DNA from: Asterionella formosa
Lineage: Eukaryota
Direction of reading: 5' to 3'
Assembly: GCA_002256025.1 (NCBI GenBank)
Contig: NKIB01015149.1
Coordinates: 1 to 38,017 of the forward strand
DNA: 38,017 bases
The notes under the pieces were generated by a model. It was not told the origin of the DNA. It saw only the letters and a program-made list of their open reading frames with translations, and made no database searches. A program made the position numbers and the translations under genes. Shown here in pieces: positions 9,615 through 38,017 of the stretch. Each line of letters starts with the position of its first letter. Position 1 is the first letter of the stretch.

Positions 9615-12485
9615 TTAGTTCAAAGATGTTTCCTTTTTCTTTGATTCAAACAGGCGCCGTACTACCAATTCGAGCACCTCCGCAATCGGTTTGGATCGAT
9701 TTGCCATATCTTTCATAGTAGCCGCCCACAACTCACCGTGTTTGGGTTCAGCAGTTATACATCGTGCTTTCACCTTTTCTTGTTGCTCCTTTGTACCAGC
9801 TCCGAGTTCAAAGGCATAGTAGAGAGCAAAGAAGTCACCTATGCCAGGATTCAATACCACAGCGCGATCAAACCATTTTCGGGCTTTGTCATGCTTGCGA
9901 TCAGACGCAAAGAGTGATGCAACCGCTGCGATCACGTAAGGATCTTCCGGACATCGTTTTATGGCGTCCGCGCACTTGGACTTTTGTTGAACCTTTGGGG
10001 CAGTGGTAATATTTTCGGCGAGAAGTAGACCAGAGGAAGGACAATCTTGAAGCGCTCGAGCCATCAAGGCTTCTGCTAGTTTCTCGTTTCCAGCTCGACG
10101 TTCCAGTCGAATGCTCTCTAACCATAATGCTGGATTTTTCGGGCAGTTCAGGCGGGCTTGGTCGAGCACACTTCGAGCTTTGATTACTCCAGAGCCAGAT
10201 TTCCCCGAATTCTTGGGGTCGAACGTATGTGCCATTTCTTCCAATCGACTTGTGAGAATCCAAAGAGTCACATTGTCGGAACATTCCTTGAGCCCACGTT
10301 GGTAGAATTTTCTTGCACGGCCCAACGACGACTTGTCCTTCTCAAGATCATCCGATAATATTTGACCACCTATCATATAGTTCTTGGCAAACTTTGGGTA
10401 CTTCAGAATCCCTTGTTCAATCAGTTCCAGCGCTTCAAAGAATTGGTGTTTTTCCCTTTCTAAAATAGCAGATTTCATGAACACACGGGCAGTTGGCGCT
10501 CGCTCTCGTGCTCGTTGAAGGAGCACCCTAGCTCGTTCTGTTTCCCCAGTTTCCCACTCCACCTTGGCAGCTGCTAGCCACACAGCTTCCGAGTTGGGAT
10601 TAGCTGCAAATGCTTCGGTCAGAATCTCCCTCGATTTGTCGATCTCACCAGCTAGCCATCGCTCTTTGGCACGGAATAACCAAAAGATCTCAACACTTGG
10701 TAAACGTGTACACGCCGCAGCCAAGACGTCGTCCAGTGATGCAGCAGTCCCGTGATTGCGTTCCAAGTCGACTGCTTGCATCCAAAGAACTTGCTTGGCA
10801 GGAAATGCAGCGAGAGCATGAGCTATTATTGCTCTTGCAGTAACGATCGCCCCACGCGACAATGAATTCTTGGCATCGTCCGCCCAAGTTCGTTGGCGAT
10901 CTTCTGGATCTACCCCCAGCCCGATGGAGTGCTGAACAATGGCTCCACATGTCAAAGGCGCCCCCGAAAATTCTGCACTTTCAGCCTCATGCAGCCACTG
11001 GCCTCGAGTGACAATAGCGTCATTTTTGGCCAATGACTTGACGGCCTTATCGACAATCTTGTCAACCATTTCGACGTGATCTTGTGATTCTTCTAGTTTG
11101 GCTGCAGCAATCCAAATCGCCCTTTCTGCTGGTAAAGCTTTTCTAGCTTGATTCAGAACCTTGCGAGCATTTTCATAGGATTCCAGTCTCGCTAATGCCA
11201 GCCACATTTCAACAGATTGAGGGACTTTTTCTACTGCCAAAGATAGCAAGACTCTGGCATCGTCAGCTCCCTCCAATTCAATGGCGGCCTTCCAAAGCAT
11301 CACTGATGTTGGGTTCGCTTCCAGTGCTTTTCTCAGCACAGCTTTTTTAGCAGATTCGATTTCTTCTAAATCTGCTGCTCTCAAAAATATTTTGACTGAT
11401 GTTGGTATTTTTCGCACAGCTGTCGCTAGAATCGATTTGGACACTTCTGGAGGGTGCAATCGAGCAGCCTCTAACCATACATCTTCGTTGGTGGGACAAA
11501 CTTCACAACCCTCTTGAATCAATTTTCTTGCTTGTAAAATCTTCCCAGCCGCTTCTTCTACACGCGCCGATGCTATCCAGCCCGGCCCATGCTTTGGGTT
11601 CGTGTCTCTAACTGACTTGAGCAAAAGTCGTGCCTTATTGATGTCGCCGATTTCGGCACTTGTCGCAATCTTCGTACTGGAAAGGGACGTCAAATATCCA
11701 CTGCGGTCCACTTCGGTTTTTGCAGCCACTGATGAATCCGCCATTTTATCTAGACTCATCCCTAACACAGTTCCGCGAGCTTCTGCTAACCCTGACATGT
11801 TGGTGACGGTGGACTGATACCCAGACATGTCTACGGTTGTGGCGGATATGGCCTTATTTCCAGCAGTCGCATCTGAATTCGCCATTGCTTTAGTTTCAAG
11901 TAGAGTGTCAGTGATGGGCGTGAATATTTCTTCTCGTCTATTTTTTTGTTTGAACTTGAGCGAGTTATCTCCAACATCAGGAATATTCATCCATTCATCT
12001 TCTGTGACATCTGCTAACTTCTCCTTCAGTTCTCTAAATTGAGCTCCAATCCGTTGCCTAGCAGTTTGCGTCGCAATCTCATCCACCTGGTATTCACGCT
12101 TTCGTTTTGAATTCATTCGTTCCTCAATCGCCGCATAAATATTGTCAGCTTCGTCGTCATCTTGATCAAAACGCTGTTGAATATTCGGCCTACTATCGTC
12201 GTATCCAGAAAATTCATCGTAACCAGTCGGCCCATCATTATTCGATGCTGGAGTTCCTGCTCCTCTTCCAGCTCCCGCAATGTATCCCTTGGGTGCGTTT
12301 CCAAATGCTGCTCGTAAACCGGACGCTCGACTTCCCGAGTCTGCGCCAGTCGATTCGGTGGTGGAGGCGCTCGCTGCGGTCATTGGTCCTATGTCCGACC
12401 GGGTCGTAAATCCAGCAGCTCCACGCCCTAAGCCGGGTATATAGCCTTTCGGGGCTGGTTTAGAACCGCCACGAAAGGATGACAT
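9615..12485 (-). CDS. PRP6: Pre-mRNA splicing factor PRP6 (U5 snRNP HAT/TPR protein)
   Basis: 956-aa intronless ORF with PKGYIPGLGRGAAGFTTRSDIGP, DDDEADNIY, GDINKARLLLKSVRDTNPKHGPGWIASARVEE, many HAT repeats and C-terminal AEPKHGELW. Confidence 0.98.
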   Translation of the reverse strand: MSSFRGGSKPAPKGYIPGLGRGAAGFTTRSDIGPMTAASASTTESTGADSGSRASGLRAAFGNAPKGYIAGAGRGAGTPASNNDGPTGYDEFSGYDDSRPNIQQRFDQDDDEADNIYAAIEERMNSKRKREYQVDEIATQTARQRIGAQFRELKEKLADVTEDEWMNIPDVGDNSLKFKQKNRREEIFTPITDTLLETKAMANSDATAGNKAISATTVDMSGYQSTVTNMSGLAEARGTVLGMSLDKMADSSVAAKTEVDRSGYLTSLSSTKIATSAEIGDINKARLLLKSVRDTNPKHGPGWIASARVEEAAGKILQARKLIQEGCEVCPTNEDVWLEAARLHPPEVSKSILATAVRKIPTSVKIFLRAADLEEIESAKKAVLRKALEANPTSVMLWKAAIELEGADDARVLLSLAVEKVPQSVEMWLALARLESYENARKVLNQARKALPAERAIWIAAAKLEESQDHVEMVDKIVDKAVKSLAKNDAIVTRGQWLHEAESAEFSGAPLTCGAIVQHSIGLGVDPEDRQRTWADDAKNSLSRGAIVTARAIIAHALAAFPAKQVLWMQAVDLERNHGTAASLDDVLAAACTRLPSVEIFWLFRAKERWLAGEIDKSREILTEAFAANPNSEAVWLAAAKVEWETGETERARVLLQRARERAPTARVFMKSAILEREKHQFFEALELIEQGILKYPKFAKNYMIGGQILSDDLEKDKSSLGRARKFYQRGLKECSDNVTLWILTSRLEEMAHTFDPKNSGKSGSGVIKARSVLDQARLNCPKNPALWLESIRLERRAGNEKLAEALMARALQDCPSSGLLLAENITTAPKVQQKSKCADAIKRCPEDPYVIAAVASLFASDRKHDKARKWFDRAVVLNPGIGDFFALYYAFELGAGTKEQQEKVKARCITAEPKHGELWAATMKDMANRSKPIAEVLELVVRRLFESKKKETSLN

Positions 12486-12760
12486 GGTGATTTCAAAAAA
12501 GATGATCTAGACAGGGCAAATACATGAGTGGTAGATTATGACACACAGAATGAAAAATGAAAAATAAAATAAAATGGTTTCTTCGACGTTTCGATGTACC
12601 GGCATGTCGGCATGCCTCCTCCTAAAATGATGATAATTTATTGTCATATTGTCTGTCATCACTAAAATTTTCCTGTCCTCATGATAACGTCATGAGACAA
12701 ACAAACAAAGTGGTATGTTGCTGTACATTTTTAATTCTAATCATGCACATGCATATGATT

Positions 12761-12805
12761 ACTGGTACCAGGTACCTGGTACGGTACCTGGTAGCTGGTA
12801 CCAGT
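12761..12805. repeat. Quasi-palindromic GGTACC/CCWGG micro-array abutting the left TIR
   Basis: ACTGGTACCAGGTACCTGGTACGGTACCTGGTAGCTGGTACCAGT; the first and last 10 nt are reverse complements. Confidence 0.9.
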
Positions 12806-12992
12806 AAAAAACCGCCATGACGCATTGAGTTGGGGTGTTTGTTTGACTTCTCCAACAAAAGGTAAATTCTATCGAATTTCGGACCCATCTGTTTGATAGA
12901 ACAGCATCGATCAATCAAGCTGTCATGTTAAAATTCTAATCAAATGATTACATCAGAAGATACAATGATAATAAAACAGCTAAGAAGTGATT

Positions 12993-13010
12993 TCAATGGG
13001 TCATGGCAGT
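12993..13010. repeat. Internal partial TIR copy, inverted relative to the left TIR
   Basis: TCAATGGGTCATGGCAGT is identical to 24623-24640. Confidence 0.9.
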
Positions 13011-13196
13011 CGTATATACATTTTTTCTGGATAAATTTATATACATTTTCGAAGACGGATTAGGTCATGTGTTATTGCACTTTTATTTCATTATAATACA
13101 TTTTTACTAAAATCATATATTCATGATCCCACACCTTCTACCATCATGATACTCTTCCGACTTTCAAGTCCAATGGTCAGATCATTGCAATCCCAT

Positions 13197-13550
13197 CGTC
13201 TGCAAATAAAAACTATCATGAATATAGGATCAAGGGTATCATACGCTAAGTGGCACAGGAATTTTACATATAAGATAGTTTTTCGATCAAAAATATGATC
13301 AATGTATCATATAATTATAATCATGCAGTAAACTTTTACCAAGCTTGAAGTATGATGATAATATCATAGTTAAAATGGATTCCATTGCATCAAATAATTA
13401 GTTAAACATGGTCATATGATGTGTATACTTTTGTCATACATCTGTCTTAGCATGATCGTAATTCTCATCGATATCACTGTCTAAAAAATAGAATGAAATT
13501 GATCGAAATTTAGAATTATATTTAAGAATGTTTTTATGTTGCTTTCTATA
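13197..13550 (+). repeat. Internal repeat module R, left copy (inverted copy at ~23430-23884; partial copy from 14076)
   Basis: CGTCTGCAAATAAAAACTATCATGAATATAGGATCAAGGGTATCATACGCTAAGTGGCACAGGA...CTTGAAGTATGATGATAATA aligns with the reverse complement of 23718-23884. Weaker similarity continues to ~13550 versus ~23430. Confidence 0.85.
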
Positions 13551-13770
13551 TCTTGACTGGCTACAGAATGTTCTACAATGCCCTCATCGCAATGATTGGT
13601 GCTTCAGCTTTCACTTCCACCTTCCCCCCAATCAAGTTCTGAAGGTTGTTGTACTGGTTGCCTTGCCGTTATTCCCCTGCTTTGTTCCATTTAATCCTGA
13701 CGGATCTGAGTTTACATTCACGCATTTTCCCATTACTATTGAATCCGTTTCGTTGTTCCAATCAGCCATA

Positions 13771-14077
13771 CTAACAAAGAGAAGCAATTCATTGTTAGCT
13801 AGCTGTTCATGTTTTGCTTACACAACAACATGCATTTCGCTTCTATCTTCACTTACCACAAATTGAGGAAGTAACTGATGCATATTTCTGTAAAAGAATG
13901 TGTCAGTTGAAGATTGAATGAGAAAGTTTCGATCAATAAATGGGCTCCAACTCTGCTCTTCTTTGTAACTTACAAATACTGCTTGTCTACCATTATCTTG
14001 AAAGAAGCAACACATATGTGTCAGTTTTTCTAACAGTTGTGGATTGATCTAAAAATGATAGCACTTACCGATTTTGT
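13771..14077 (-). other. Micro-exon/intron unit in the left transposon arm (coding status unclear)
   Basis: Three GTAAGT donors (14068, 13973, 13856), each with a CTGAC/CTAAC branch site and AG acceptor (13997, 13888, ~13771). Exons are 9, 23 and 31 nt. The unit is homologous to 22927-23254 on the opposite strand. Confidence 0.65.
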
Positions 14078-14786
14078 CTGCAAATAAAAACTATCATATT
14101 TCCATGATGCATCATAAAATCGTGATCATCTGATCATAATTTTTCGTTATATCATCTAATAATTTTGAAAAATGCCCTTGTAATTCAAATAGTAACCCTT
14201 TTGACTACATATATTTAATTATTATATGTATTGTTTCTATTAGATTCCTGTATTCGAATTTCTTGGCAGGGTAATATACCAGCTAAAATAATGCAATTTG
14301 GCTTGTCATTTCCATCCGTCATCACTCCGATTTTTGCAACAATAACGAAATACTAGCGATGACAAGTGGAATGATTGTTTGCGATAACGACGTCTTCAAT
14401 TGTTGGTCATGTGATCATTATATCTTTGAGTAATCGTCATGTGCAGAGAACCTTTGTTCATAACCATTCAATTAAGAGTTTACAGAGAAGAAATCATTCA
14501 AACTCGTAATGGTTCCGCACACAGCGCACATTGTGAATCCGTTTCGTCGACCACCAGCATTACAATCTCGCCAATCAACCCATAAACAAACACATTCTAC
14601 TTGTTCTCGTTGACATTTTCAATTCTCACATGATACTACATCTACTATTGAGATTCAGCATAGAAGGAGATACGAAAATGTACGTAACAGACTACAGTCC
14701 ACATAGCTATAGTTCTTATAGAATGATTCAGATTACAATTTCTTTCTCATGTCGCTCGTTTCTGCATTTGGCATGAAGCAGGTGGC

Positions 14787-15167
14787 TCTCTTCATTGTTG
14801 TTTGCTTGTAGGAAATATTTGTTGGAACTGTCCGTTGCCTCAAACCTGCTTGGCGTGTGCGTACACACACTGCCGACTTGTTTTCATTGGTATGTTGTTC
14901 TTGTATTCACTGTTGAGCTTATCCGCATCTTTGTTACCATCAATTGAGCGACAAGTGGGTGCGTCTCTTCATTGTTGTTTGCTTCTGGAAAAGTCGGTGT
15001 CTGTGTCATCCTCATCAATAGAGGGACAAGTGTCCTTCATCATTGCGGTTTGCCGCTGGAAAAATTGGTACCCGTGGTATCGTCATTCGCTCGTTGGAAC
15101 CAGCCACTGTCCGTTGCCTCAAACCTGATTAGCGTGTGTGTATGTGCACTGTCAACTTGTTTACATT
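14787..15167. repeat. Degenerate internal direct repeats inside the transposon
   Basis: TCTCTTCATTGTTGTTTGCTT...GGAAA occurs at ~14787 and ~14965, with a weaker third copy at ~15033. GTTGGAAC..CTGTCCGTTGCCTCAAACCTG...ACTTGTTT.CATT occurs at 14821-14888 and 15093-15167. Confidence 0.85.
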
Positions 15168-15514
15168 ACAGGAGTGACTTAGCTACTAAAGTGCATGTTA
15201 TAATATCATGCTCCGTAGTACAATGCAAAATACTACAGTTCCCAATCATCTCATCATGATTGAAAAGCAAGGTGATAATGTGATATCAGGATAGGTTTAC
15301 ATTGATGCATACATCGCCAAAGTATGATACGTAATATTGAATAAAGCATATCACATAACTATGATACATTGATCATAGGACTGTGATGATTTTTAAAATG
15401 TTTATGATATAATTTTGATCAAAATATGATCATGTTAAAATAATACAATGACAATAAAATACGATAAAATATGTATGCAAGTGTTATCGATACATCAGAG
15501 AAAATAAATAAGTC

Positions 15515-16283
15515 TCACTATTCGTCCAGAACGCACATCAAGATGAACATCATGAAAGCAGAGAAACTATCGCATTTCTAAAAGAAAAGCATTATATTCA
15601 AGAAAAAGTCCGAGCTAGATCAAGACCTCGAATTCAAGAAGATCAATGCAGACAGAGATGTGATGCTGGCTAAGGCAGTTGATGCACTGAGCGAGTCAGG
15701 AACGAAGTTTGAAGAAAAAAATTGTCCAAATCATACATGGAAGAAAAAGAATTTCTCTGTAAAATCATCGAGAACAATCCCGAAGGCAACTAGCTACTTT
15801 TGTGAAGAGTCAGCATGTGAAATATGTAGAGTTATTATGCCAAGCAAAGCAAACTGCATTTTCCTTGAGTTTGCCGAAAACGCATGGACAACTAAAGTTG
15901 TGAAAAGATTTGTACACACGTACCCCACAAGAACTATGCAATTACGCCTCTGTATTTTATGGATTCAAAGGTGGTATCAAAAAATCATCTTCAGATATTA
16001 AAGATCTTGCATATTGGGTCCTTGAAAAAATTACCTCTATGATCCATTATATAATTCATGAACTTTATCCAACTGATGTAAAGGTTATACTATATTTGAT
16101 CTGGGTGATAACCCAGAAAAGGGTAATAACAAACCATCTATATACCAAGGTGATTTTCATCCACTTCATCATGAAAGTAACTATGTGCTAATTGTTTATT
16201 GCAAACGATCAGATGAGGAGGAAAACAACCATTCAAGGAACGAATACACGCTAAGAGAATGGTTGTTGTGTTGGAGAAAATAA
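15515..16283 (+). pseudogene. Decayed ORF of unknown function, convergent with the transposase
   Basis: Overlapping + strand frames (15660-16001, 15910-16191 and a third to ~16283) give protein-like text across frameshifts: ...LAKAVDALSESG...CPNH...CEESACEIC...DLAYWVLEKITSMIHYIIHELYPTD.... No family recognised. Confidence 0.4.
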
Positions 16284-19200
16284 CATTTCCCCAAAGAAGT
16301 ACTTTTGCCGGAACTGTGTAGGAACTTGATACATCTCCTTTCTCTCAGGTCACTTCAACCCAGTCAAACCATTCACGACCAGAGATTCCTGGCTGCATTT
16401 GAATCATTATTTCATTTCGGATGGCATCTGAGAATAGTAGTTTGGCCGGGAACATTACTTTCAATTTGAACATGATAATGAAAGTCAATCCTTACAATGG
16501 AAACAGGCCCAACCCCATCCTCAAGACTTTTAATTCTTGCTATTTCTTTTGCTGAATTCGCAATTCTCTTTACGTAGTTGGCCCCCTTTGGTAAATCAGG
16601 ATGAACCAATTGAGACAAGGGTGCATCCTTCCTCCGTGATACATGCCCAATCTTATTAGGGACACCTGCTATAGTCCATATGACCAGCTATTTGATGATG
16701 AAGCAGAGAATTGAACTTTAACAGACAGGAAGGGATGCATGGTGAATGGATCTTGGTAGGCGATATTCCCAAAATATCAGGCGACATACTCCTAGGCAAC
16801 ATCCTTGTATCCTGAATCATTCCCTCGAAATCAATTTCTGTTGAAATACCCTCAGATACATTGATGTATACTTTACTCATCTTCTTTTGTTTGTTTTCTG
16901 TATGTAATGAATCACTTGCAAAAACAATTTTTCGTGCCAAGGAAAACTGCCTTGTTTTATATGACCTTGTTAAAATGTCATGCTTTAATCGATGTAATTG
17001 GCTGTCCATTGACGCGCTTACTGGGTTGCTGCTCGTTTCAGTTTGTCTTTCGAAAAAGACTCCAAATATTCACCAAAGAAATTAAGAGGAGATCTAAACT
17101 TCCTAATCAGATGAGGGTAATGTTTCATTGCATGAGATTTTGCCATTCGTAAGTCAATTTGAGATATCATTTCCCGTTGGGGACCAATCATAATCTTTGT
17201 AACTGACATAAATCTATCTCTTAACTCTTTCCTCTAAAATATCAATACTGTACATGTTGATGTATGCTGCGGTATGAATAAGTTTCATTGATAGATATAC
17301 ATAACCATAACAGCAATGTGAAATCCTTTTCTAGGTGCATGTTCTCTGAACCCATCATTCCACCCATTGAAAAAATAGTTAACAGACATAATCCGGGAAT
17401 TTCTTGCCTTGCCTGACATTTTTGACAAAGCTGTCATCCCAGATCTGTATGACAATTTTGGAATATCACGATCGCTTTGCCTTGCTTTTCAAATGACTAT
17501 TGATATATCTAGCAGCCACTTTGTTCGAAGTATACTTTCGAAAATAGATGCATTTCTGGTGCTGGTACAAGTGTTGGGTCTTGATTTTTGCCAGTGTAGA
17601 TATTTTTGGTAAATGGTGCGAGTGTCGCTCCTTTTTTGTCTTTGCCCGTTTCTCCGCTTCCTCTTGATCAAGAAAAATATTGTCTGTTGTTTGAGTGATA
17701 CGTTTCTGATCCGAGATGTTCTATGGAATATCTGGTGTGGTGATTTTCTTTCTTTAAAAAAACATGTCCATTCTTCAGGGATAGTCCGATAATTGTACAA
17801 TGATTCCAAAATGTGTGAACTTAAATATTCCAAGTAGTAATTGATGAAGAACCTCAAATGGAGTTGCACCAAATAATCCTTCTAAGTCACCACCAAAAAA
17901 ATGATTAATTAGTGCAGGCATAATAGGATTTTGCGATATAACTCGGCACCACTCGTTTGCTGTTGCGTATTTGCCATTAGATTGGGAGACACAATACTCA
18001 GGTGGGATGCATGGAGGCCGATATGCATTTTTGTCAAGAAATTTGTTTAAAAACTTTTAAACATCTGTTTTTATCATCTGACACTTTACAATGTTCACAT
18101 CCAATATCGGGATTATCAGCATCTTCAGTTGAAACCAGGCAATCACGACAAACATATAGTCGATATAATCCATTACCACCCCTGAAACCACAAATTTTGT
18201 GTGCCCTTCTGTATCATTAATGATCATTCCAATCTGGAAATAAACTTTTGTCATACCAAGACCATGAACCCAAATATCGTATAACTTGTTTGGATCAATC
18301 TTCGAAAGGCGATAATAGAAATCCTGTAACAGAATGGTATAATTTGAGTCGACATAAGGACAAGTCGTCACCAGATAACTTATTATTCATTTGTTTCTCC
18401 AGATCACTTACTTCAATGTCTGGCAAAAGAGATACCAATTGCCATCCATCAACTTTTTTCATTCCTTCATTCTAACGTTAAGTTTAACATTGTCATCAAA
18501 AACGGATGCTCGGAATGTTTCATTTGTTTATCAATAGGTGAACCATCACTGAAAACTGCTAGGGCAACAAATAAACACCCTGTCTTGCCTTCAACACTCC
18601 ATTTTCTGATGCAGGAGAATTGTTGAATGCATTTTCAAACCAAGTCGCGGAAGTTACTTCGTTATATATGCGTTCTCCACAAGTTGTAAGAAATTTCACT
18701 TGTGGTTGACATAAAAAATGTTGCATGATATCGGAATCACGTAACAATCCTGCCATGATCTGTACTGGTGCGAAATAATGGAGTGTGCGTGGGATGATCA
18801 TGTTTGAATTGTTATCAATCTGTATTTGTTTGGTCAACAGTTGACCACCAGCTAATGTTGGTGGAAATGAAATATCCATGCGTTTTTTCAAAGTCTGGTA
18901 GGATGGAGCTTGATACGCCACCTTCCATCAAAATATTTCATTGCTTTGGCCTTGAACAGCCATTTCATTAGATGATCAAAGTAAACTGGTGGAAGGTAGG
19001 TAATTCTCGTTAAGGAGTAACATGAGTTCTATTTGATTGGATGTATGTTTAGAGAATGTTTACTTGGAAGTTGAAATTGAGGAGGAAGGGGCATTTCCAT
19101 TGCATTTTCAGGGAGAAAGCCGGTGTGATCTTGGAAATCTGAATATTGCATGGTCTCTGAATTCAATCCTTGGAGAGTTTTTAGTCTCAATTGTTCGTCT

Positions 19201-19562
19201 TGTTGTAAATGAATATTGTTATAAACTGAATTGTCGCTGTCGTCATGAAATGAATAACTGTGGCCACTTGATTCAAGGAAAGGAAACATAATCTCTTCTT
19301 GTTGTCTACTCTCCCTAAATGCTGCAGCAGTTGTTACTACACTGCCATTAACTTCTTTCCTTGAATGATTCAATGCACTACCGCAATACATAGTTTCATT
19401 ATGCTTTCCAGGAACTCGATGTTCTTGCATGCAATGTCGACAGTGACCATATGCATAGAAAACACGGTTGCTACAATTTCGTTTGTGAGACTCAGATGGG
19501 GATTTGTTCTTCCGAAATTTGTAGTTACACAGATAACACCATTGCAATGTCCGCAAAGACAT
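16230..19562 (-). pseudogene. Plavaka-type DDE transposase with N-terminal Zn-finger-like motifs, disrupted by many frameshifts and stops
   Basis: Manual translation across frames gives, in order: CYLC..H..C and CRHC..H..C; GERIYNEVTSATWF; LAVFSDG (D ~18546); HPFLMTMLN; GWQLVSLLP; RLKLYHSV; IINDTEGH-K-ICG (D ~18214); CRDC; FGGDLEGLFGATPFEVLHQLLLGIFK; RQSDRDIPK..GMTALSKMSG; KSHAMKHYPHLIRKFxSPLNFFGEYLES (E ~17061); RCHP...WFDWVEV...PAKVLL. This matches the motif order known for Plavaka transposases. The 3' end is approximate. Confidence 0.85.
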
Positions 19563-19861
19563 TGCAAATTTCAAATGATGACAAAGTCAGGATATGAACA
19601 GGATAAAATGAAAATGAATGATTAATAATAAATTTAGCATCACTCTGATCATGCTGTGCTGGACAATACAGAGTCGTGAAATTAGCACTCCACCATAGTA
19701 GTAAAAATGGAGGTATACCACTACATACAGTAAAGGCGCCACTACTAGTATAGAGCAACATCAATGTTTTCCTAACATCTATGATATGGTTTGTGCATTG
19801 TAGAAGTCTCACACTAACTATATATATTATGTAACTACTAAGCATGCATTCTTGGATTCTG

Positions 19862-21860
19862 TTAGAGCCATTCAAAATCAACGTCGTCATCAATGTCCTA
19901 TTGATTAATGCGTTCATGGTAATCAATATTCTTCTCAGGAACATTTGGCTGAAGTGGTTCAACATATTGATGCATATCCTCTTCACTTACATTGGGAAAT
20001 GAGAAGTATGAGTTTGGGTAGATGATATTTGTTGTGGAAGTAGCAATTCCACTAGGAATCCTTCCATATTCAGATCGATTCTTTTGTGAAAGTCCAGTGT
20101 AGATTTCCTTATAATAACCGAGTAACTCATCAGTCCATTGATCAGTGAGACCATTTGAAACTGAACTTTCTTCCCTCACATTTTTTGATAAGTGGTTGCC
20201 CACCAATGTCGACAAAATCAGTAGAATGACGAATATTGTTGCTTCTCTGAAATTTCCTGCGTATCTGGATTGAAACCCAAATTTTTGTTGCAATCGGAAT
20301 TTTCCTTTCAGCACCAAGAAGCAAAATGCTTCTGTACTGGCATTGATTAGAAAACCAACAAAACGTGATTTTAATTCACACTGTGCCCAAGGACTCAGTT
20401 GAAATTTGATCACACCAGATTTGTCTCTTGTAAAAATGGTTCTCCACAGCTTGTTCTGCCTATAAAATGCACTGGAGCAAGAACATCACGCCAGACTTGG
20501 TATCCTTGGCCTGGCTTCCCCTGTCAATGTCCTTTGACTGCGCAAAACGATAAAGCGTGAACGCCCAACTAATAAAGTCATCAATATCCATAGTCTGGAA
20601 GGAGTTATATTCTGTTAGACCAGCTGGTGTGTCATGAATTATGTTAGCATTTTTAATTCAAACATATTTGATAAGAATATAATCAGCAACTCAGAACATC
20701 ATGCTTTCAGAGCATCTCCCACCCTGCAAGAACTTACCTAAGATTCCTTTAATTTGATTATTCAATACATTCTGACATTCTCTAGCTCAACTTTTTAATG
20801 CACATGCCACCAAATGTTGTTTTAATATAATCTAAACGTGCCTTGTTGGTATGTTCAATGGTCTGATTCATTGGAAGTAGTGAATCAGAACCATTCCATA
20901 TGAAATCGGCAAGCTCTGAGTCACTTTCCACTTCTTTGCCTAACTCCGGTTTCACTGTGTGTAGCCGAGTTAGGCAGGTAAACATTGGGCAAACCAATCC
21001 TGGCTGTTTGTGATTGGAAATGCCCTTCATACTACTTGGACCAGATTGGCAGGGCGGGATGTTTGATTCTCTTTTGGGACCAGAAAAAAGCACATTAGAT
21101 TGAAATTCTTTTCTACAGTACCTGCAATTCACGAACTATAACATCAAACTTACATGTTCACAGCAAAACTTCTTGGTCTTGAAAACAAATAAAACTCACA
21201 ACCTTTGTGACAATTGATGGATCGGTTCAATTTTAGCTAAGCAGTAAGCGGGAACGACGTTCTGATTAGGCTGCTGAAATTGAAGATTCTTGATAACCTC
21301 ATATGGACGAGTTTTGAACCGAATTAGGACCTTTGTAGTGATTGAGTTCATTGACCAATTGAAAATATCCTTTGGCAATTGCAGATTGTTTTTCCCTCAG
21401 TTTTTCTTGTACTTGTTGGTCCGTGTGATTAGAAAATTTATGATATGGTACCATGTTGTCCATCTGTTAATGGTATCATCGACAGGAGCCATTTTTCTTG
21501 TATCAACAACTGAAAAAGAAACGTCATCATCGCTTTCAGTATCAATTACGGGAGCCTTTGTACTAGTTGCTGATGGTGTCCCCATCAACGGTGGGGTAGT
21601 ACCCCCACTAACTCCCTGTTGCCGATTGGGTTCCTTTGGATAGTCGTCTATTCGCTTTTTCTTTGTTATCTCATTTTGGTACTTGCTTCTTTGTTCCATA
21701 CCAGCAGTATTTGCCACATGTCACTTGTTTCCATGAACCTCTTTATTGTTTTTTGAAGACATTGTACTACTCGATAACTGTTGTCGTTGTCTGCCTTAAA
21801 GTTCGATGATCTTAAAATCAGGTGTTGCAAACTACAATGAAATGAATCATCAGCCAGCAC
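19862..21860 (-). pseudogene. Second decayed ORF of the transposon (accessory protein, unknown function), co-oriented upstream of the transposase
   Basis: Consecutive minus-strand fragments (21666-21860, 21397-21717, 21196-21378, 20782-21132, 19898-20413) are separated by stops and frameshifts. There is a probable intron at ~20737-20624 (GTAAGT...GCTAAC...CCAG). It ends in an acidic tail DIDDDVDFEWL*. Confidence 0.6.
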
Positions 21861-21968
21861 TACATGTAATATTTTACGCTGTCTAGATATGATACCATAA
21901 AACCAACAGTGCTATTTACATTATCATATACAAAATCAGAACCGAGTTTGAGTAATAGCATATCTTGT

Positions 21969-22203
21969 TTTCAATTATACGATTATATGATCTTGAAACT
22001 ATGATGCTTTACTGTCCCACTGTAGTCGCAACAGCCCTGAATATATGGTGTTCTGTTGCTCGCTTACTACTCCGACTACCCTCTTTCAATTATACAATCA
22101 TATGATCCTGAAACTATGATGATTTACTGTCTCACTGCAGTAGCAACAGTCATGAACAAATGGTGTTCTGTTGCTTGCTTACTACCTGGTACTCTGACTA
22201 CCC
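21969..22203. repeat. Two-copy 115-bp tandem duplication inside the transposon
   Basis: TTTCAATTATAC.AT.ATATGATC.TGAAACTATGATG.TTTACTGTC.CACTG.AGT.GCAACAG...ATGGTGTTCTGTTGCT.GCTTACTAC starts at 21969 and again at 22084. Confidence 0.93.
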
Positions 22204-22819
22204 CCAGTATATCACTTCCTACCTGCTACTGGTACTCTGTATATAGATGATAAAATGTTATTGTCATATGATGTACCGGTACACATGAAGAACTCCCGCC
22301 CAAAAAAGGGGCTTAAACAATATGCTACCAAAATCCTTGTGTATAAAATGGGTTATGACTTACACCAATTGAATGGTCTGCCGGTGAATAATTAGTTCCA
22401 AAGGTCATAGATAATATTGATGCAAACAAATTTCAGAAATAATACCAGTACACGAAGTCGTGGAAAACAATGGACATATCATGCATTGAATATTTTCGAA
22501 TTATCTATATGCAAATATGATCATCTCAACAATAGCTACCCGACGTTCCATATTGAGAGTGCCTTTGATTTTTATAAATGTACGACACTTGATTTATTTA
22601 TATATTTACATGGCAAATATATTTGAAATCGTTCTGTCATGTTAACAAACAATGCCTGCTTCATGAAAAGAAATATGCAAAGTAGTAAAGCACATGACAA
22701 GAAAGGAAAGTTTACGCAATAACGAAAAACATTGTGGCTTCGACACATGGCGCCTTCGAAGGATGGAGTATGTTTAAGGTAATGAAGCCATCACTGTGGT
22801 ACTTGGATGAAAATCGTTG

Positions 22820-23254
22820 GTAGGTAGTTCAACAACAAATTGTAAACTAAACGCACATTTCCTTTTTTCTCGGTTGAATCAACAGCTTGTTTCGCTTTTT
22901 GGGGAGCACCAAGAATGTAAAACAAAACAAAATTGGTAAGTGCTCTTGTCATTGGACCTATTCACTTCTGATGGAACATAACTGACGCCGGACACGCAAC
23001 TTTACCTTCTCTCAAGTTAAGCTAATGAAAATGAATCGGTAAGTTTTATTCGGCAACATTGGAAACCTGAAACTCACTTATTCAAGAATTTAGCTACTGA
23101 CAATTTACTATTACAGACTTATACATCACTTGCTTTGATTTGGCTGTGGTAAGTTAAGCAAGCAAGAGGATACGATGGAATGGCGTGATGTTGTGTCAGT
23201 GTAACATGTCTAGCTAACAAGTCGTTCCTTCTCATTGTTATTGTAACTGCATAG
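22820..23254 (+). other. Micro-exon/intron unit in the right transposon arm (four short introns)
   Basis: Candidate introns 22820-22885, 22936-23016, 23039-23116 and 23149-23254 have GTAGGT/GTAAGT donors, CTAA/CTGAC branch motifs, pyrimidine-rich tracts and AG ends. Internal exons are 50, 22 and 32 nt. No intact long spliced ORF results. Confidence 0.7.
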
Positions 23255-23429
23255 GACAATAAAAACGATCAAACGGAATAGCCGGCGAGTTCAGAATGAC
23301 ACTAACAGCAGTGAGAGAGACGCAATATTAGTAAGGCATTGCTTGGCACAAGATTCAGAAAAGAGGAAGAAAAGGGTGAGACAGGAACAATATACATTGA
23401 GCCGAGTAGAGAGAGAAACGTTGGGTCAC

Positions 23430-23884
23430 TGGCATGTAGAATAATAGATAGCATTGTTGCTAAATTTGATAGCTAAACTACGATACATTTCAATCTATTT
23501 TGAAAAATGCTTGTGATTAGAATTATGATGATGTTTACGATAGATTTACGATGAAACAATTTAAATGATAGCATAGAGTTGAGCTGATTTTAGGATGCGT
23601 TGTAGTAATAATTTACATCGGGCAATCATGAGAATTGAAAATAATATGAGAGGGTTTATGATGATGTTGAGTAATGTTGTTGATCAGTTGATATACATTG
23701 TGTGATGATAACATTCTTATTATCATTATACTTCAAGGTCGGTAAAATATTTATAAATCATCATAGTTATAGGATACCTTGATCATATTTTTGATCCAAA
23801 AATTATCATATAAAAGAAAATCCTGTGCCACTTAACGTACAATACCCTTGATCTTATATGCATGATACTTTTTATTTGCAGACG
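23430..23884 (-). repeat. Internal repeat module R, right copy
   Basis: Reverse complement begins CGTCTGCAAATAAAAAGTATCATGCATATAAGATCAAGGGTATTGTACGTTAAGTGGCACAGGA, matching 13197 onward. Confidence 0.85.
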
Positions 23885-24168
23885 TCTTTTCTTGAAAGAA
23901 TACCCATGTTGGGGACAGCAGTGACACTTGCCTTTTGTAACCAGTACTAGTCGACTTTCTTTTTTGTCAGCCAAGGTAAGTATACCTTCTAAGCTTTCAC
24001 CATGTTAGTAATTGTTCTGTAAGGGAGCTTTCCATTATTGTTCGCCTTGATTGCTTCAAGCTCTGTAACAATGCCAAGCATGTTGCATTGAATAACGACC
24101 TGAGCATAATGAAGTGCTTTTGTCTTCTTCTTGATGTTGGAAACTCGACTCTTTCTTGACTTTGGCAT
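23872..24168 (-). pseudogene. Truncated, decayed gene fragment in the right arm, possibly the N-terminus of another transposon protein
   Basis: CCACC-ATG at 24168 gives MPKSRKSRVSNIKKKTKALHYAQVVIQCNMLGIVTELEAIKANNNGKLPYRTITNMVKA*KVYLPWLTKKKVD*YW...RKDVCK*. It has two in-frame stops and ends in the first bases of repeat R. Confidence 0.5.
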
Positions 24169-24668
24169 GGTGGGCTAGTGATGGTTTGCGTAATAGCTGT
24201 GGACTTTTTTCCTATGTATTGTGGACTGACGAATGCATATATATCAAAATCCTCAATCAGATATAGGCACGCCCATATCATTTGCCATCTCTGTAGTACA
24301 ATTCAATACCAAAACAAAATCTATATTGCTGTAAATGTGGTTAACGTTCAGACACTTATTAAATCAATCTCGAAATTTTTGTATACATCGTTGTATATTA
24401 TATGACAATGAGAACTCCAAACTTACCCTAATCCATCTTCTCTGTGTTTTTTTGGTCGATTCATCACTATTTCCGGCAATCTACAGAGATGAACAACTGA
24501 CTCCAAATCTCAAACTAAATACATAGCTGACTAGCCTACATGCTCAAGAAGGAGCCTGAACTCTCAGAATTTACATTTACTAAAGTTTTGTAAGCAAAAC
24601 GTGTTATTCTTCAAAAATATTCTCAATGGGTCATGGCAGTTTTTTACTGTTGCCAGGTCCCTGGTACC

Positions 24669-24757
24669 TGCATGCTGCTGTAATTGTGCTGACTCTAAAT
24701 CTTTAGCTGTCTTTATCCTATATTAAATTGTTTATTTAAGCCAAATGACCGCAACTT
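24669..24757 (+). repeat. ~85-bp dispersed repeat, copy 2
   Basis: TGCATGCTGCTGTAATTGTGCTGACTCTAAATCTTTAGCTGTCTTTATCCTATATTAAATTGTTTATTTAAGCCAAATGACCGCAACTT; see 716-801. Confidence 0.9.
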
Positions 24758-24758
24758 G

Positions 24759-25020
24759 CTGGTACCAGGGTGCCAGTGGGTAGGTACTCCATACCTATTA
24801 GAGGTACATACTGTAATTCTGCATGTTAACTACGTATAACATAGAATCGTTCCTGGTACCAGGTACCAGGTACTCTTGCACACCTACCGGTACCATGGTA
24901 CCAGGTACCAGGTTAAAAGGTACAGTACCAGTGCACCTGGTACAGGACGCCGTTGTACCCCGAGAACAGGTGGTACCAGGTACCTGGTACCTGTTACGCT
25001 CTCTGGAGCTCTGGAGTACA
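24759..25020. repeat. GGTACC/CCAGG/CCTGG-rich low-complexity array
   Basis: Dense runs such as CCTGGTACCAGGTACCAGGTAC, CCGGTACCATGGTACCAGGTACCAGG and GGTACCAGGTACCTGGTACCTG. Confidence 0.9.
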
Positions 25021-35308: not shown

Positions 35309-35809
35309 GTGGTACCGATGCCTTTCCTTACTGCTGTTGCTTCGATTTTCTGGAGGGGTAGGTTATATCGCACTTATTTGCTCGATGGAGGGGTAAACAT
35401 AAACTATCAATGGTTGGACTACCAAACTCACTGATCCGTGTACTCGGACTAAGAGCCTTTTCTCACTCTCTTACTCACTCTCACTATCTGTCTCTTCCTG
35501 CACTTGGTCACCAAACGACGGCAGAAGTGATCACCTCCTTCTTGACCCAGGAATCATAAAGGATTGATGAAAAAAGGCGGAACAGAAATTTCACGCAAAA
35601 GTAGAAGTATAATCAAGATACTCTCAAGCTTTAGCTATATTATTCCCATAGTCTCAAGATGATGGCGGGCGAACACTGCCAACAGCCAGTTCTCCGTTGA
35701 TTACTTTACGCAGTAATTACGTATACATCCACGACATGCAATGGCCACCTCAACGGAAATAACATAACCGTTATTGACTAGCCGTTTCAAAGTGCCAATG
35801 AGCATGACT

Positions 35810-35832
35810 CGGTACCAGGTACCTGGTACTGG
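35810..35832. repeat. Short GGTACC/CCWGG micro-array
   Basis: CGGTACCAGGTACCTGGTACTGG; a similar one lies at ~7331-7346. Confidence 0.8.
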
Positions 35833-36869
35833 TTCTACCTACTATACAGTAAATGTATTTGTTAATGTACGAAGGATTAAAATACTGAATCACATAAAAA
35901 TACCCGGTAATATCTTCGGATGCGGTGAGGAGCGTTGAATATCAATCATAGCTGTAGTTGAACCGCTTAAGATTCCTGATTCCAGTTTGGTTTTAAGTGT
36001 GACTGATGCTTGGAATGGAGCTGATTCCTATAATAATGCTTCAATAGATCAAAAGAAACATTTTAAATGATCTATCAGTTGATCCTCCTGACTGCACCTG
36101 GTATAAATGGAGATTAAAGGAACAAAACTAATGGAGAGCTACTTTGATCAATCCCAAATCTAGTGTAATAAATGGAATCACCAGAGGTATGCTGGTTATA
36201 GCAGTAAGCATCATGGTGGTAGTGGTATGCATCATAGAAGTACTCGTAGATGATAATAGTCATTGTCAAGATGTATCCAGAAGGTCAGGAAATATTCAAG
36301 AGGAATAGAAGTGGCCTAGTATTATTGATTAAGAAACCAACTTAAACTATGTTTTAGTAGCTAGTAGCTACCTACAATCAATCACCAAGAGCACCTGCTA
36401 GGAGCATGTCACAGATGTAGGCTTAAAAACATAGTCTAGCAATGGCTGACAAGAATAGCTATGTTAATAGATATTTTAAAGGCGGGTTACCAGATTAGTA
36501 AAGAATTTGGTACCAGTTCAAGTTGTCTGGGGAAGCAGAAAAATCAGACAAGTGAGAAGATTCCTGCTTGCTTGCTCTTCTTGTGTTGAAAGATGTGAAG
36601 CCAATTCCTATTTTTGTTTCCAAACCATACAGTTTAACTATCTTGTCATGTGATGTGATTTATGTTGGATGAATTGGCATTCTAAATCAGCGACATGGAT
36701 AAACAGAGACAAAAAAGATGAGGGAGCTGACAAATGATGTGTGATTATTTTGTGAATTTTTTATTTGTTGATGCATAATAAGGCATTGAGCACCAGGTAT
36801 ACTCAATAAATGTATGTCTTGGCAATATGATGTGAAACAAATAGCGTATTATTGGTGACTAATACAGTA

Positions 36870-37301: not shown

Positions 37302-38017
37302 TACTTCAATCCACAATGAGCGAGCAACGAAATAAAATAGTTAAAGGTAAAATTAGCTTTCACCAATACGACCACTTTGCATATGCTTAGATACAGTCAT
37401 GGGTCGACTTAGGGGTATGATCTATATACAGATATGCTAAGGACCTCATTTCTGGAGAGAAGTGGATTGTATGACATGCAATTCCCGCTCCAGCTATCGT
37501 CTTGCCATTCGGGTACTTCTAAGTAATTTTTAGTCTCTAAGTAATTTCTTAAGTAATTTTTATTTAAGGGCAATATGGGGCACATCGAATTTTTCGGCAA
37601 TAAAATTGCCGATTTTAGCATGACAACCAAAATAACGGTAATATGCATGGAGATGGTACAACAAGCGTAAAACACACGAGAATGATTGTAACATGCAACA
37701 TCAATGAAAATTGAACATGATGTTTGGAGCAACCAAAGTATGCAATGCGATGTAATAAGTAGCATCAAATGAGAAATAGAAAAATTGTTTTGGGTTAGAA
37801 ATGAAATTAAAAATAAGAGTTCCAATGGAGACGTATGCATTGTGAATCATTGTAGTACTTACACACCAGCAGGCAACATTGACTTTCCACCACCACACAA
37901 TCGAAGACCAAAATAAGAAGGGAAAAGCTGAACCCAATCTTGACCTACATCGTTATGTAGCGTAAATGGTCTGGTTTCTGCAACCATGCGCATCGCTGTA
38001 GTAGCCTGACACCAGTA

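Follow-up and report, generated by a model that had tools for sequence, protein, structure and literature searches.

The 38,017-nt window of Asterionella formosa analysed here (contig NKIB01015149.1 of assembly GCA_002256025.1, in full) contains a short repeat, R, that begins at the same base in three places and appears to cut into its neighbours, which raises the question of what kind of junction it marks. The first-pass annotation had seen in it either the long terminal inverted repeat (TIR) of a nested element at 13197-23884, a site at which cargo segments are captured or shuffled, or a portable splice acceptor. It can be concluded with high confidence that R is the 23-bp TIR of an abundant family of Plavaka-type (CMCT clade, CACTA-related) cut-and-paste transposons, that 14075-23884 is one decayed copy, and that the piece at 13197-14074 represents the B end of a copy from a diverged sister subfamily, the rest of which is gone. 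The arrangement is ordinary transposon nesting, R occurring three times because a near-whole copy abuts the truncated end of a related one. The first of the earlier options survives as far as the identification of R with a terminal repeat of a transposon goes, and gives way as to its length, 23 bp, and its pairing, 14075 with 23884.

The three starts at the same base were reproduced: the motif GTCTGCAAATAAAAA occurs exactly three times in the window, at 13198 (+), 14076 (+) and 23883 (-), against a chance expectation from base composition of about 2e-4 copies, and no further copy was found within the window at one or two mismatches. The conserved boundary lies one base further out, with C at the 13197 and 23884 ends and T at 14075. 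The ends at 13197 and 23884 are of the same type (82% identity over the first 176 nt, 62-71% deeper in); the copy at 14076 resembles them for only about 22 nt, after which a different end type follows. Both truncations described earlier also stand. A 50-nt candidate exon of the right arm (22886-22935), lying between TCAACAG and GTAAGT, is reduced at the 14077 junction to a 9-nt remnant, and the MPKSRK frame is ended by the third R start, reading into GTC TGC AAA TAA.

A metagenome scan for R returned 23 matches, 14 of which (six of type A and eight of type B) run on into element sequence and represent true ends, with local scores of 32-52 of 60. The other nine (L001, L003, L007, L009, L010, L012, L013, L015 and L020) scored at most 13 and were dropped as chance matches. 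Three B loci (L004, L006 and L017) correspond to one site, leaving 12 independent sites, and eight of the 14 loci derive from a single metagenome assembly. All true ends begin at the identical base, and the flanks of 11 loci and of the three window ends are mutually unrelated, bar three exceptions, namely stretches of GGTACC, a further repeat and the flank at 14077, which matches the right arm. Tabulating flanks and cargo in this way, as had been suggested for genomic copies, revealed sharp boundaries with variable flanks, neither ragged nor invariant; the abrupt start after unrelated sequence therefore holds outside the window too, and the family shares this trait with the Plavaka lineage. 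In all 14 loci, the sequence following R belongs to one of two fixed classes, A or B. No opposite TIR (at up to five mismatches) was found inside these loci, none of which carries both ends; no empty allele was seen in the loci and runs examined, and a scan of viral contigs gave no match to R.

The main element carries one end of each type (Table 1). Beyond the TIR, ends A and B are only 59% identical over the next 100 nt (gapped alignment), end A being linked to 14077-16233 by four loci (L021, L022, L005 and L023) and end B to 23884-23033 by two (L019 and L008). Before 14076, 113 contigs of run X1 carry loose, mutually disagreeing letters (agreement 0.39). Summed contig depth of the element in this run reaches 700-2700 times that of the flanks, a ratio that is not a copy number, and depth steps occur in contigs near ~13190 and ~23840. 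From the mechanism of the family, the transposase would cut at the first base of R, which would explain the uniform start after unrelated DNA and the truncation of the neighbour. The ATGAT/ATCAT-rich stretch at about 15250-15480, previously called R-like, is indeed dense in these motifs (9 per 250 nt at 15251-15500, versus 0.7 outside the repeat zone and a mean of 2.2 within the element) but holds no R start at up to two mismatches; it resembles the B subterminal region (67% over 100 nt) and is best read as internal family sequence, not as a fourth terminus.

Table 1. Features at and around the three copies of R (window coordinates).
Feature	Position	Strand	Basis or remark
Outer lower-copy repeat(s), left part	12803-13196		Inverted match to 24622-24668; partial internal copy 12995-13012
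Truncated B end of diverged sister subfamily, carrying R copy 1 (13197-13219)	13197-14074	+	Opposite orientation to main B end
9-nt pseudo-exon from junction	14069-14077	-	TIR-derived AG plus rest of sister-copy exon
Main element, decayed Plavaka-type DNA transposon (very probable), 9.8 kb	14075-23884	- (transposase strand)	End A left, end B right
TIR end A (R copy 2), starting with T, not C	14075-14097	+	21/23 identical to end B
Internal ATGAT/ATCAT-rich segment	15250-15480		Covered by L022 (to 15414) and L005 (15356-15486)
Accessory ORF remnant, convergent with transposase	15513-16233	+	88% match to L021, which runs on past it
Frameshifted Plavaka-type transposase pseudogene	16225-19430	-	tblastn of sister-copy and relative proteins; Pfam PF18759
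Transposase motifs	AVFSDG 18559-18542; INDTEG 18221-18204; CRDC 18150-18139; HAMKH within 17137-17120; GEYLES 17074-17057	-	
Candidate small exons, spliced accessory gene in B arm	22886-23400 (right limit approximate)	+	GT/AG sites from sequence
TIR end B (R copy 3)	23862-23884	-	End type of L008, L014, L016, L018, L019, L004/L006/L017
Outer lower-copy repeat, right part, with truncated MPKSRK ORF (24168-23887, two in-frame TAG)	23885-24647	-	

Transposase remnants tile 19430-16225 in tblastn with the sister-copy proteins P0001, P0010, P0012, P0014 and P0015 and with the full-length P0097 and P0109. The latter two score 61 and 66 bits against PF18759 (cut-off 26.3), align along 18574-16246 and match the sister-copy proteins with E values between 1e-11 and 1e-59. 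The window's own fragment reaches 17.1 bits (E 0.0034), below the cut-off, and the Plavaka Pfam match is absent in 14 of the 15 window ORFs tested; membership in the Plavaka transposase family (PF18759) is supported by the full-length relatives, not by the window fragment. The C(2)C and H(3)H motifs of Plavaka can be recognised in the window transposase, CRDC and HAMKH (HGMKH in P0012 and P0015) both sitting between INDTEG and GEYLES. The acidic residues of AVFSDG, INDTEG and GEYLES align with FVDG, IGDTEG and GGPLE of P0097, and we take them, by position, to be the putative DDE catalytic triad. The P0015 match stops at residue 507 of 595, and the 3' ends of both the transposase and the accessory ORF were lost at a deletion near 16225-16233. 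In L021, the accessory ORF has no Pfam, PDB or Atlas match. Pfam matches of window ORFs to CbiQ, ISP_coupler, Imm63, Gag_p10 and PH_24, all below cut-off, were discarded as noise. The candidate exons of the B arm are conserved in the sister piece at 13732-14074.

The fungal PlavakaA and PlavakaB elements of the CMCT clade (PMC12730594), in the parts of that work consulted, are alike in their PF18759-type transposase, which bears C(2)C and H(3)H motifs, their short TIRs, a terminal Y-R-T-C followed by an A-rich run, and a size of 6.2-9.9 kb among the supplement rows seen; they differ in host, which here is an alga, and no TET/JBP gene was detected among the 15 window ORFs scanned. The terminus of the present element is probably CGTCTGCAAAT, in register with fungal ends, two of which, CATCAGGAAAT and CATCAGCAAAA from the same supplement, each agree with it by eye at 8 of 11 positions. 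It departs from the TGT..ACA termini of PlavakaA, since CGT opens the end at 10 of 12 outside sites and two of three window ends, with TGT only at 14075, and from the CATCA..TGATG termini of PlavakaB, CGTCT sharing three of five letters (8 of 11 positions with two PlavakaB-like ends). In its sequence, the family terminus stands between those of the two fungal groups.

A terminus beginning at TCTGC instead (TCT..AGA ends), with insertion specific for CG (CpG) and duplication of that CG, would agree with the CG that precedes TCTGC at those same 10 outside sites and two window ends, and with TG standing both at window 14075-14076 and at the corresponding position of the right arm, where the homologous sequence is not interrupted; the remaining outside sites carry CT (L004/L006/L017) or GT (L023). 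The TG is nevertheless explicable by a microhomology join or CpG decay, and in a homolog of the L011 flank (77% identical) that is not interrupted, GG stands at this place, a weak point. The CG-inclusive end, moreover, fits the register of the fungal Plavaka termini, whose duplications, in the material seen, are variable 2-3-mers (PMC12730594); on this comparison, CG target duplication is considered unlikely.

With CGTCTGCAAAT as the terminus, neither pairing shows a target duplication of 2 or 3 bp that matches exactly, the outside triplets being TTT and TCT for 14075/23884 and CAT and TCT for 13197/23884. The 14075/23884 target site appears to have been altered by deletion. A single deletion beside one end of the main copy would have removed the remainder of the sister copy together with the middle of the outer repeat. 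The chances are about even that it began at end A and closed at a GT microhomology of 2 nt, a course that would account for the T at 14075. Somewhat below even are those of the main copy having inserted into the sister copy, with the deletion starting from end B, which would account for the near-duplication TTT/TCT.

Very unlikely is a role of R as a splice signal, in which the GT at the second position of the TIR, together with an AG that follows a T-rich tract and lies four bases from the end, would allow insertions to be spliced out or onto their flanks. TTTTTATTTGCAG does read at every end, a 9-nt AG..GT unit arises at 14077-14069, and introners are known to arise from TIR DNA transposons, likewise with splice-site-like dinucleotides at both element ends in the portions consulted (PMC12130899). 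The donor context GTCTGC, however, is unlike the element-internal GTAAGT donors, and none of the 11 flanks is an evident intact host exon, since stop-free runs there span only 5-246 codons versus a median of 517 inside a host gene. The termini gave no RNA joint among the joints listed (15 of 596; contigs, one RNA run), whether at 13200, 14078 or 23881, where the first-pass annotation had placed a TTTGCAG acceptor; weak as this test is, the portable acceptor found no backing in it. Equally improbable is that the TIR doubles as a splice mask whose excision, in either orientation, would leave four element bases plus the target duplication. If true, the residue would be in frame when the duplication is 2 bp, and the family or its short derivatives would be an algal source of new introns derived from Plavaka; the main text of the introner paper mentions neither Plavaka, CACTA nor EnSpm (PMC12130899). 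Contigs of RNA run X23 cover the element and also the flanks, and are not informative on transcription or its level.

The sister piece bears on whether 13197-23884 is one element with diverged TIRs of ~900 bp, or a composite moved via its two B ends, R at 14075 being an inner boundary. The arms align over 880/960 nt, both ends carry intact B-type termini, and depth is high over the whole stretch. Yet the left piece is absent at five of five A ends with usable flanks (at least 78 nt), the loose ends at 14076 mutually disagree, and another B end, that of L019, shares 91.5% identity with the right arm but 74% with the left piece. Furthermore, the outside 3-mers CAT and TCT mismatch, and homologs of the outer ORF lack any continuation into the sequence left of 13197. 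Such an element is highly improbable, and as a family structure largely refuted; under the nesting of two copies, the apparent 900-bp TIR arises because a sister-subfamily B end lies in opposite orientation. The homology between sister piece and right arm ends at 14077/22927 and resumes nowhere else in the window, and the piece is itself strongly repetitive at 80% likeness, with a depth ratio of ~1400-1550. That R is a recombination or capture site shuffling cargo in an R-cargo pattern is scarcely credible: although 14076 continues differently from 13198/23883 and L004, L014, L016 and L023 diverge 70-700 nt after R, these divergences fall at varying distances and not at R, as expected of subfamilies, internal deletions (L005, L021) and nested insertions, and no shuffling is seen because each end type leads into its own fixed interior.

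These results add one more Plavaka-type family with its ends fixed (CGTCTGCAAAT, types A and B), and the mimicry of a long-TIR element by nested subfamily copies is something that those annotating repeats can use. Red algae harbour giant Plavaka elements (bioRxiv 10.1101/2025.02.11.637652), which, as far as that account was consulted, likewise carry several genes, are very abundant in their algal host genome and are for the most part degenerate, but measure 17.4-19.1 kb and carry methylase/SET and oxygenase genes (accessory PAG1-3), versus 9.8 kb for the present copy. Among the literature matches, judged mostly by title, none concerned Plavaka elements of diatoms, so that a host of this kind may be a small addition to the published range. 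The findings would carry more weight if CpG targeting were specific, or if the ends were spliced, should that be true.

The main element and sister piece are enclosed by a repeat of lower copy number that has lost its middle, with depth ratios of ~200 for its right and ~110 for its left part. All 15 candidate homologs of the MPKSRK ORF are 71-90% identical, and several run past the 23884/23885 junction; a longer homolog was absent among 30 candidates, and the ORF gave no convincing Pfam match and no Atlas match. The left part was rejected as a direct continuation of this ORF, whose homologs do not continue there. Also rejected as an empty site was a joint between 12782 and 24852 that all four runs list and that rests on 19-22 letters in GGTACC runs; no 13196-23885 joint occurs among the joints listed (15 of 596). 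In P0123, an A end is fused into a further copy of the outer ORF, at a point other than that seen in the window.

The repeated start R, placed by the first-pass annotation at 13198 (+), 14076 (+) and 23883 (-), was recovered as an exact 15-mer at these three positions in the window, about 2e-4 copies being expected from base composition; a search of the window with one or two mismatches returned none. The 50-nt and 9-nt exon-like units and the stop codon provided by R at the right junction also matched their description. R is a real feature, and it is explained by nested transposon ends of the ordinary sort. The earlier reading of 13197-23884 as one element with long terminal inverted repeats (TIRs) is right in that R is a transposon TIR, but the element spans 14075-23884 and its TIR is only 23 bp, with 21 of 23 positions identical between end A (left terminus, 14075) and end B (right terminus, 23884).

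Features of the window and its repeats
Feature	Position	Strand	Remark
PRP1_N/TPR splicing-factor gene	9615-12506	minus	flanks the 13-kb stretch of 34-40% GC
Outer repeat, left part	12803-13196		lower-copy repeat around the element
Frameshifted transposase	19430-16225	minus	tiled by sister-copy proteins
Outer repeat, right part	23885-24647		contains the truncated MPKSRK ORF
Bromodomain/PHD gene	about 25.8-32.6 kb	plus	flanks the 13-kb stretch of 34-40% GC

Exact searching of metagenome contigs with a 21-letter R pattern yielded 23 loci, 14 of which continue as the element over the next 60 nt (score 32-52); the other nine, scoring 13 or less, were dropped as chance matches. One assembly supplies eight of the 14, and three (L004, L006, L017) are a single site at 99% identity, leaving 12 sites. 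Only two classes occur, six loci continuing as 14077 (end A) and eight as 23882 and 13199 (end B), with onward matches into 14077-16233 at 78-94% identity and to 23033 at 89%, respectively. All 14 begin at the identical base, and their 40-nt flanks are visibly different: in BLAST comparison of the flanks of 11 loci and the three window flanks (matches of 99.5% or more removed as self or same-site; L023, with 9 nt of flank, omitted), the only sequences shared were GGTACC runs, a single unrelated repeat, and the flank at 14077 with the right arm (the end B arm). Likewise, 113 contigs of sequencing run X1 carry mutually disagreeing loose letters before 14076 (agreement 0.39; among the 24 loose ends listed of 5,529), which is the signature of a terminus present in many places. 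Contigs of four runs were aligned at 80% likeness. In X1 the flanks had a summed depth of ~1,100; the outer repeat reached 110-200 times this value and the span 13188-23843 reached 700-2,700 times it. The ratios are not copy numbers, though the steps are clear. Two loci are family copies with internal deletions, joining 14207 to 15356 (L005, 3425-3686) and about 14280 to 15513 (L021, 80-1152). The low-coverage contig L014 follows the B end for 298 nt and passes after base 1077 into unrelated bacterial-looking sequence, possibly an assembly chimera.

The R copy at 13198 belongs to a separate piece. Positions 13197-14077 align to the reverse complement of 23884-22927 at 82% in the first 176 nt and 62-71% deeper, and the copy at 14076 has only ~22 nt in common with those at 13198 and 23883. 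The piece 13197-14074 is a B end of a sister subfamily: locus L019 shows 91.5% likeness to the right arm against 74% to the piece, which is absent before all five A ends with usable flanks. The ATGAT-rich patch reported at 15250-15480 is present, but holds no R start and is internal to the element (covered by L022 and L005). It is 67% similar over 100 nt to the B subterminal region, a likeness that repeated protein-binding motifs may cause; 22086-22126 is similar to that region as well. Direct repeats of 102 nt (88%) and 62 nt (84%) also lie inside the element (21969-22185 and 14776-15167).

By its transposase and motifs the element belongs with the Plavaka lineage, CMCT clade, and works alike. 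The window fragment scored 17.1 bits against Pfam Plavaka, below the 26.3 cut-off (one of 15 window ORFs), and a cluster-representative search returned 99 relatives, of which two are full length; these, P0097 (61 bits) and P0109 (66 bits), align along the remnant (three of eight proteins scanned exceed the cut-off). The C(2)C and H(3)H motifs assigned to the clade in PMC12730594 fall between the residues that are candidates for the second D and the E. The element's termini differ from both PlavakaA and PlavakaB, falling outside the terminal definition of each. Other decayed ORFs stand on either side of the remnant. The transposase and a convergent ORF have both lost their 3' ends to a deletion near 16225-16233. 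An accessory ORF in L021 (1177-1515), with no database match, terminates in QPEDDSGWSCGPF, reminiscent of the Q..CG motif that Ulp1-type cysteine proteases carry. For red algae, bioRxiv 10.1101/2025.02.11.637652 describes Plavaka elements that are abundant, degenerate and multi-gene; among the literature matches listed, none had a title on diatom Plavaka.

CG precedes TCTGC at 10 of 12 outside sites and two of three window ends. These two bases might be read as a target duplication but are probably the element's own first bases, judging from terminal sequence: fungal Plavaka ends given in the PMC12730594 supplement start TGTCGGAAAAA, TGTCGCAAAAA, CATCAGGAAAT and CATCAGCAAAA, with variable duplications of 2-3 bp, and CGTCTGCAAAT matches CATCAGGAAAT and CATCAGCAAAA at 8 of 11 positions by eye, which makes a duplication less likely. 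Against this, the right arm, which is uninterrupted at the homologous position, has the same TG there as is seen at 14075. No exact target duplication is left at either pair of ends (TTT/TCT at 14075/23884, CAT/TCT at the outer pair).

All 15 candidate homologs of the MPKSRK ORF were taken as homologs, and several run beyond the junction seen in the window. Their continuation was not found left of 13197, nor the rest of the sister copy right of 23884; the outer repeat thus lacks its middle and the sister copy its remainder. Both losses would follow from a single deletion beside one end of the main copy. It could have proceeded from end A, joined at GT to give the T at 14075, or from end B after insertion into the sister copy, giving TTT/TCT. 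An independent A end within another copy of the MPKSRK outer ORF (protein P0123) indicates that nesting in the outer repeat recurs. The right junction, 23880-23887, is an 8-nt palindrome, AGACGTCT, and outer-repeat contigs of runs X10 and X23 cease aligning at 23893, so that 5-8 nt beside the end are of ambiguous origin.

In every TIR, base 2 begins a GT and an AG lies four bases before the end, so the TIR could be read as a splice signal by which the insertion is spliced out; four bases would stay behind together with the duplication (in frame with 2 bp, out of frame with 3 bp). This reading is unlikely and has no positive support. The TIR donor context differs from the element's own GTAAGT donors, and no joint falls at the termini among 15 listed of 596 in contigs of one RNA run, where the first-pass annotation had proposed to look for acceptor use. 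Stop-free runs at 11 flanks measured 5-246 codons, against medians of 517 for a host gene and 57 for the transposon zone; the longest resembles a retroelement reverse transcriptase by motif.

The window is eukaryotic, from a putatively diatom-like host, and the nested ends lie in a 13-kb stretch of 34-40% GC between two host genes. Algal and freshwater metagenome runs supply most of the related reads. Observed/expected CpG is 0.65 in the element (14076-23882), 0.50-0.81 in other repeats and 0.96-0.97 in two host genes, and the low ratios of the element and other repeats are consistent with methylation-driven decay. The motif AGTAAAAAAC(C/T)GCCATGAC(G/C)CATTGA, at 12783-12829, 12995-13012 and 24622-24668, bounds the outer repeat in inverted and partial direct copies; it may serve as TIR for a second DNA transposon family or for a MITE at 12803-13012. 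Palindromic GGTACC(A)GGTACC runs cluster in intergenic DNA at 12759-12807, 24848-24998 and 35788-35834, as well as in L005 and L016, and give rise, in each of the four runs aligned, to a joint 12782-24852 that looks spurious. A dispersed 89-nt direct repeat (87%) recurs 24 kb apart (716-801 and 24669-24757), and another dispersed repeat near the right end of the window (37322-37657) also adjoins insertions of the family in L011 and L022.
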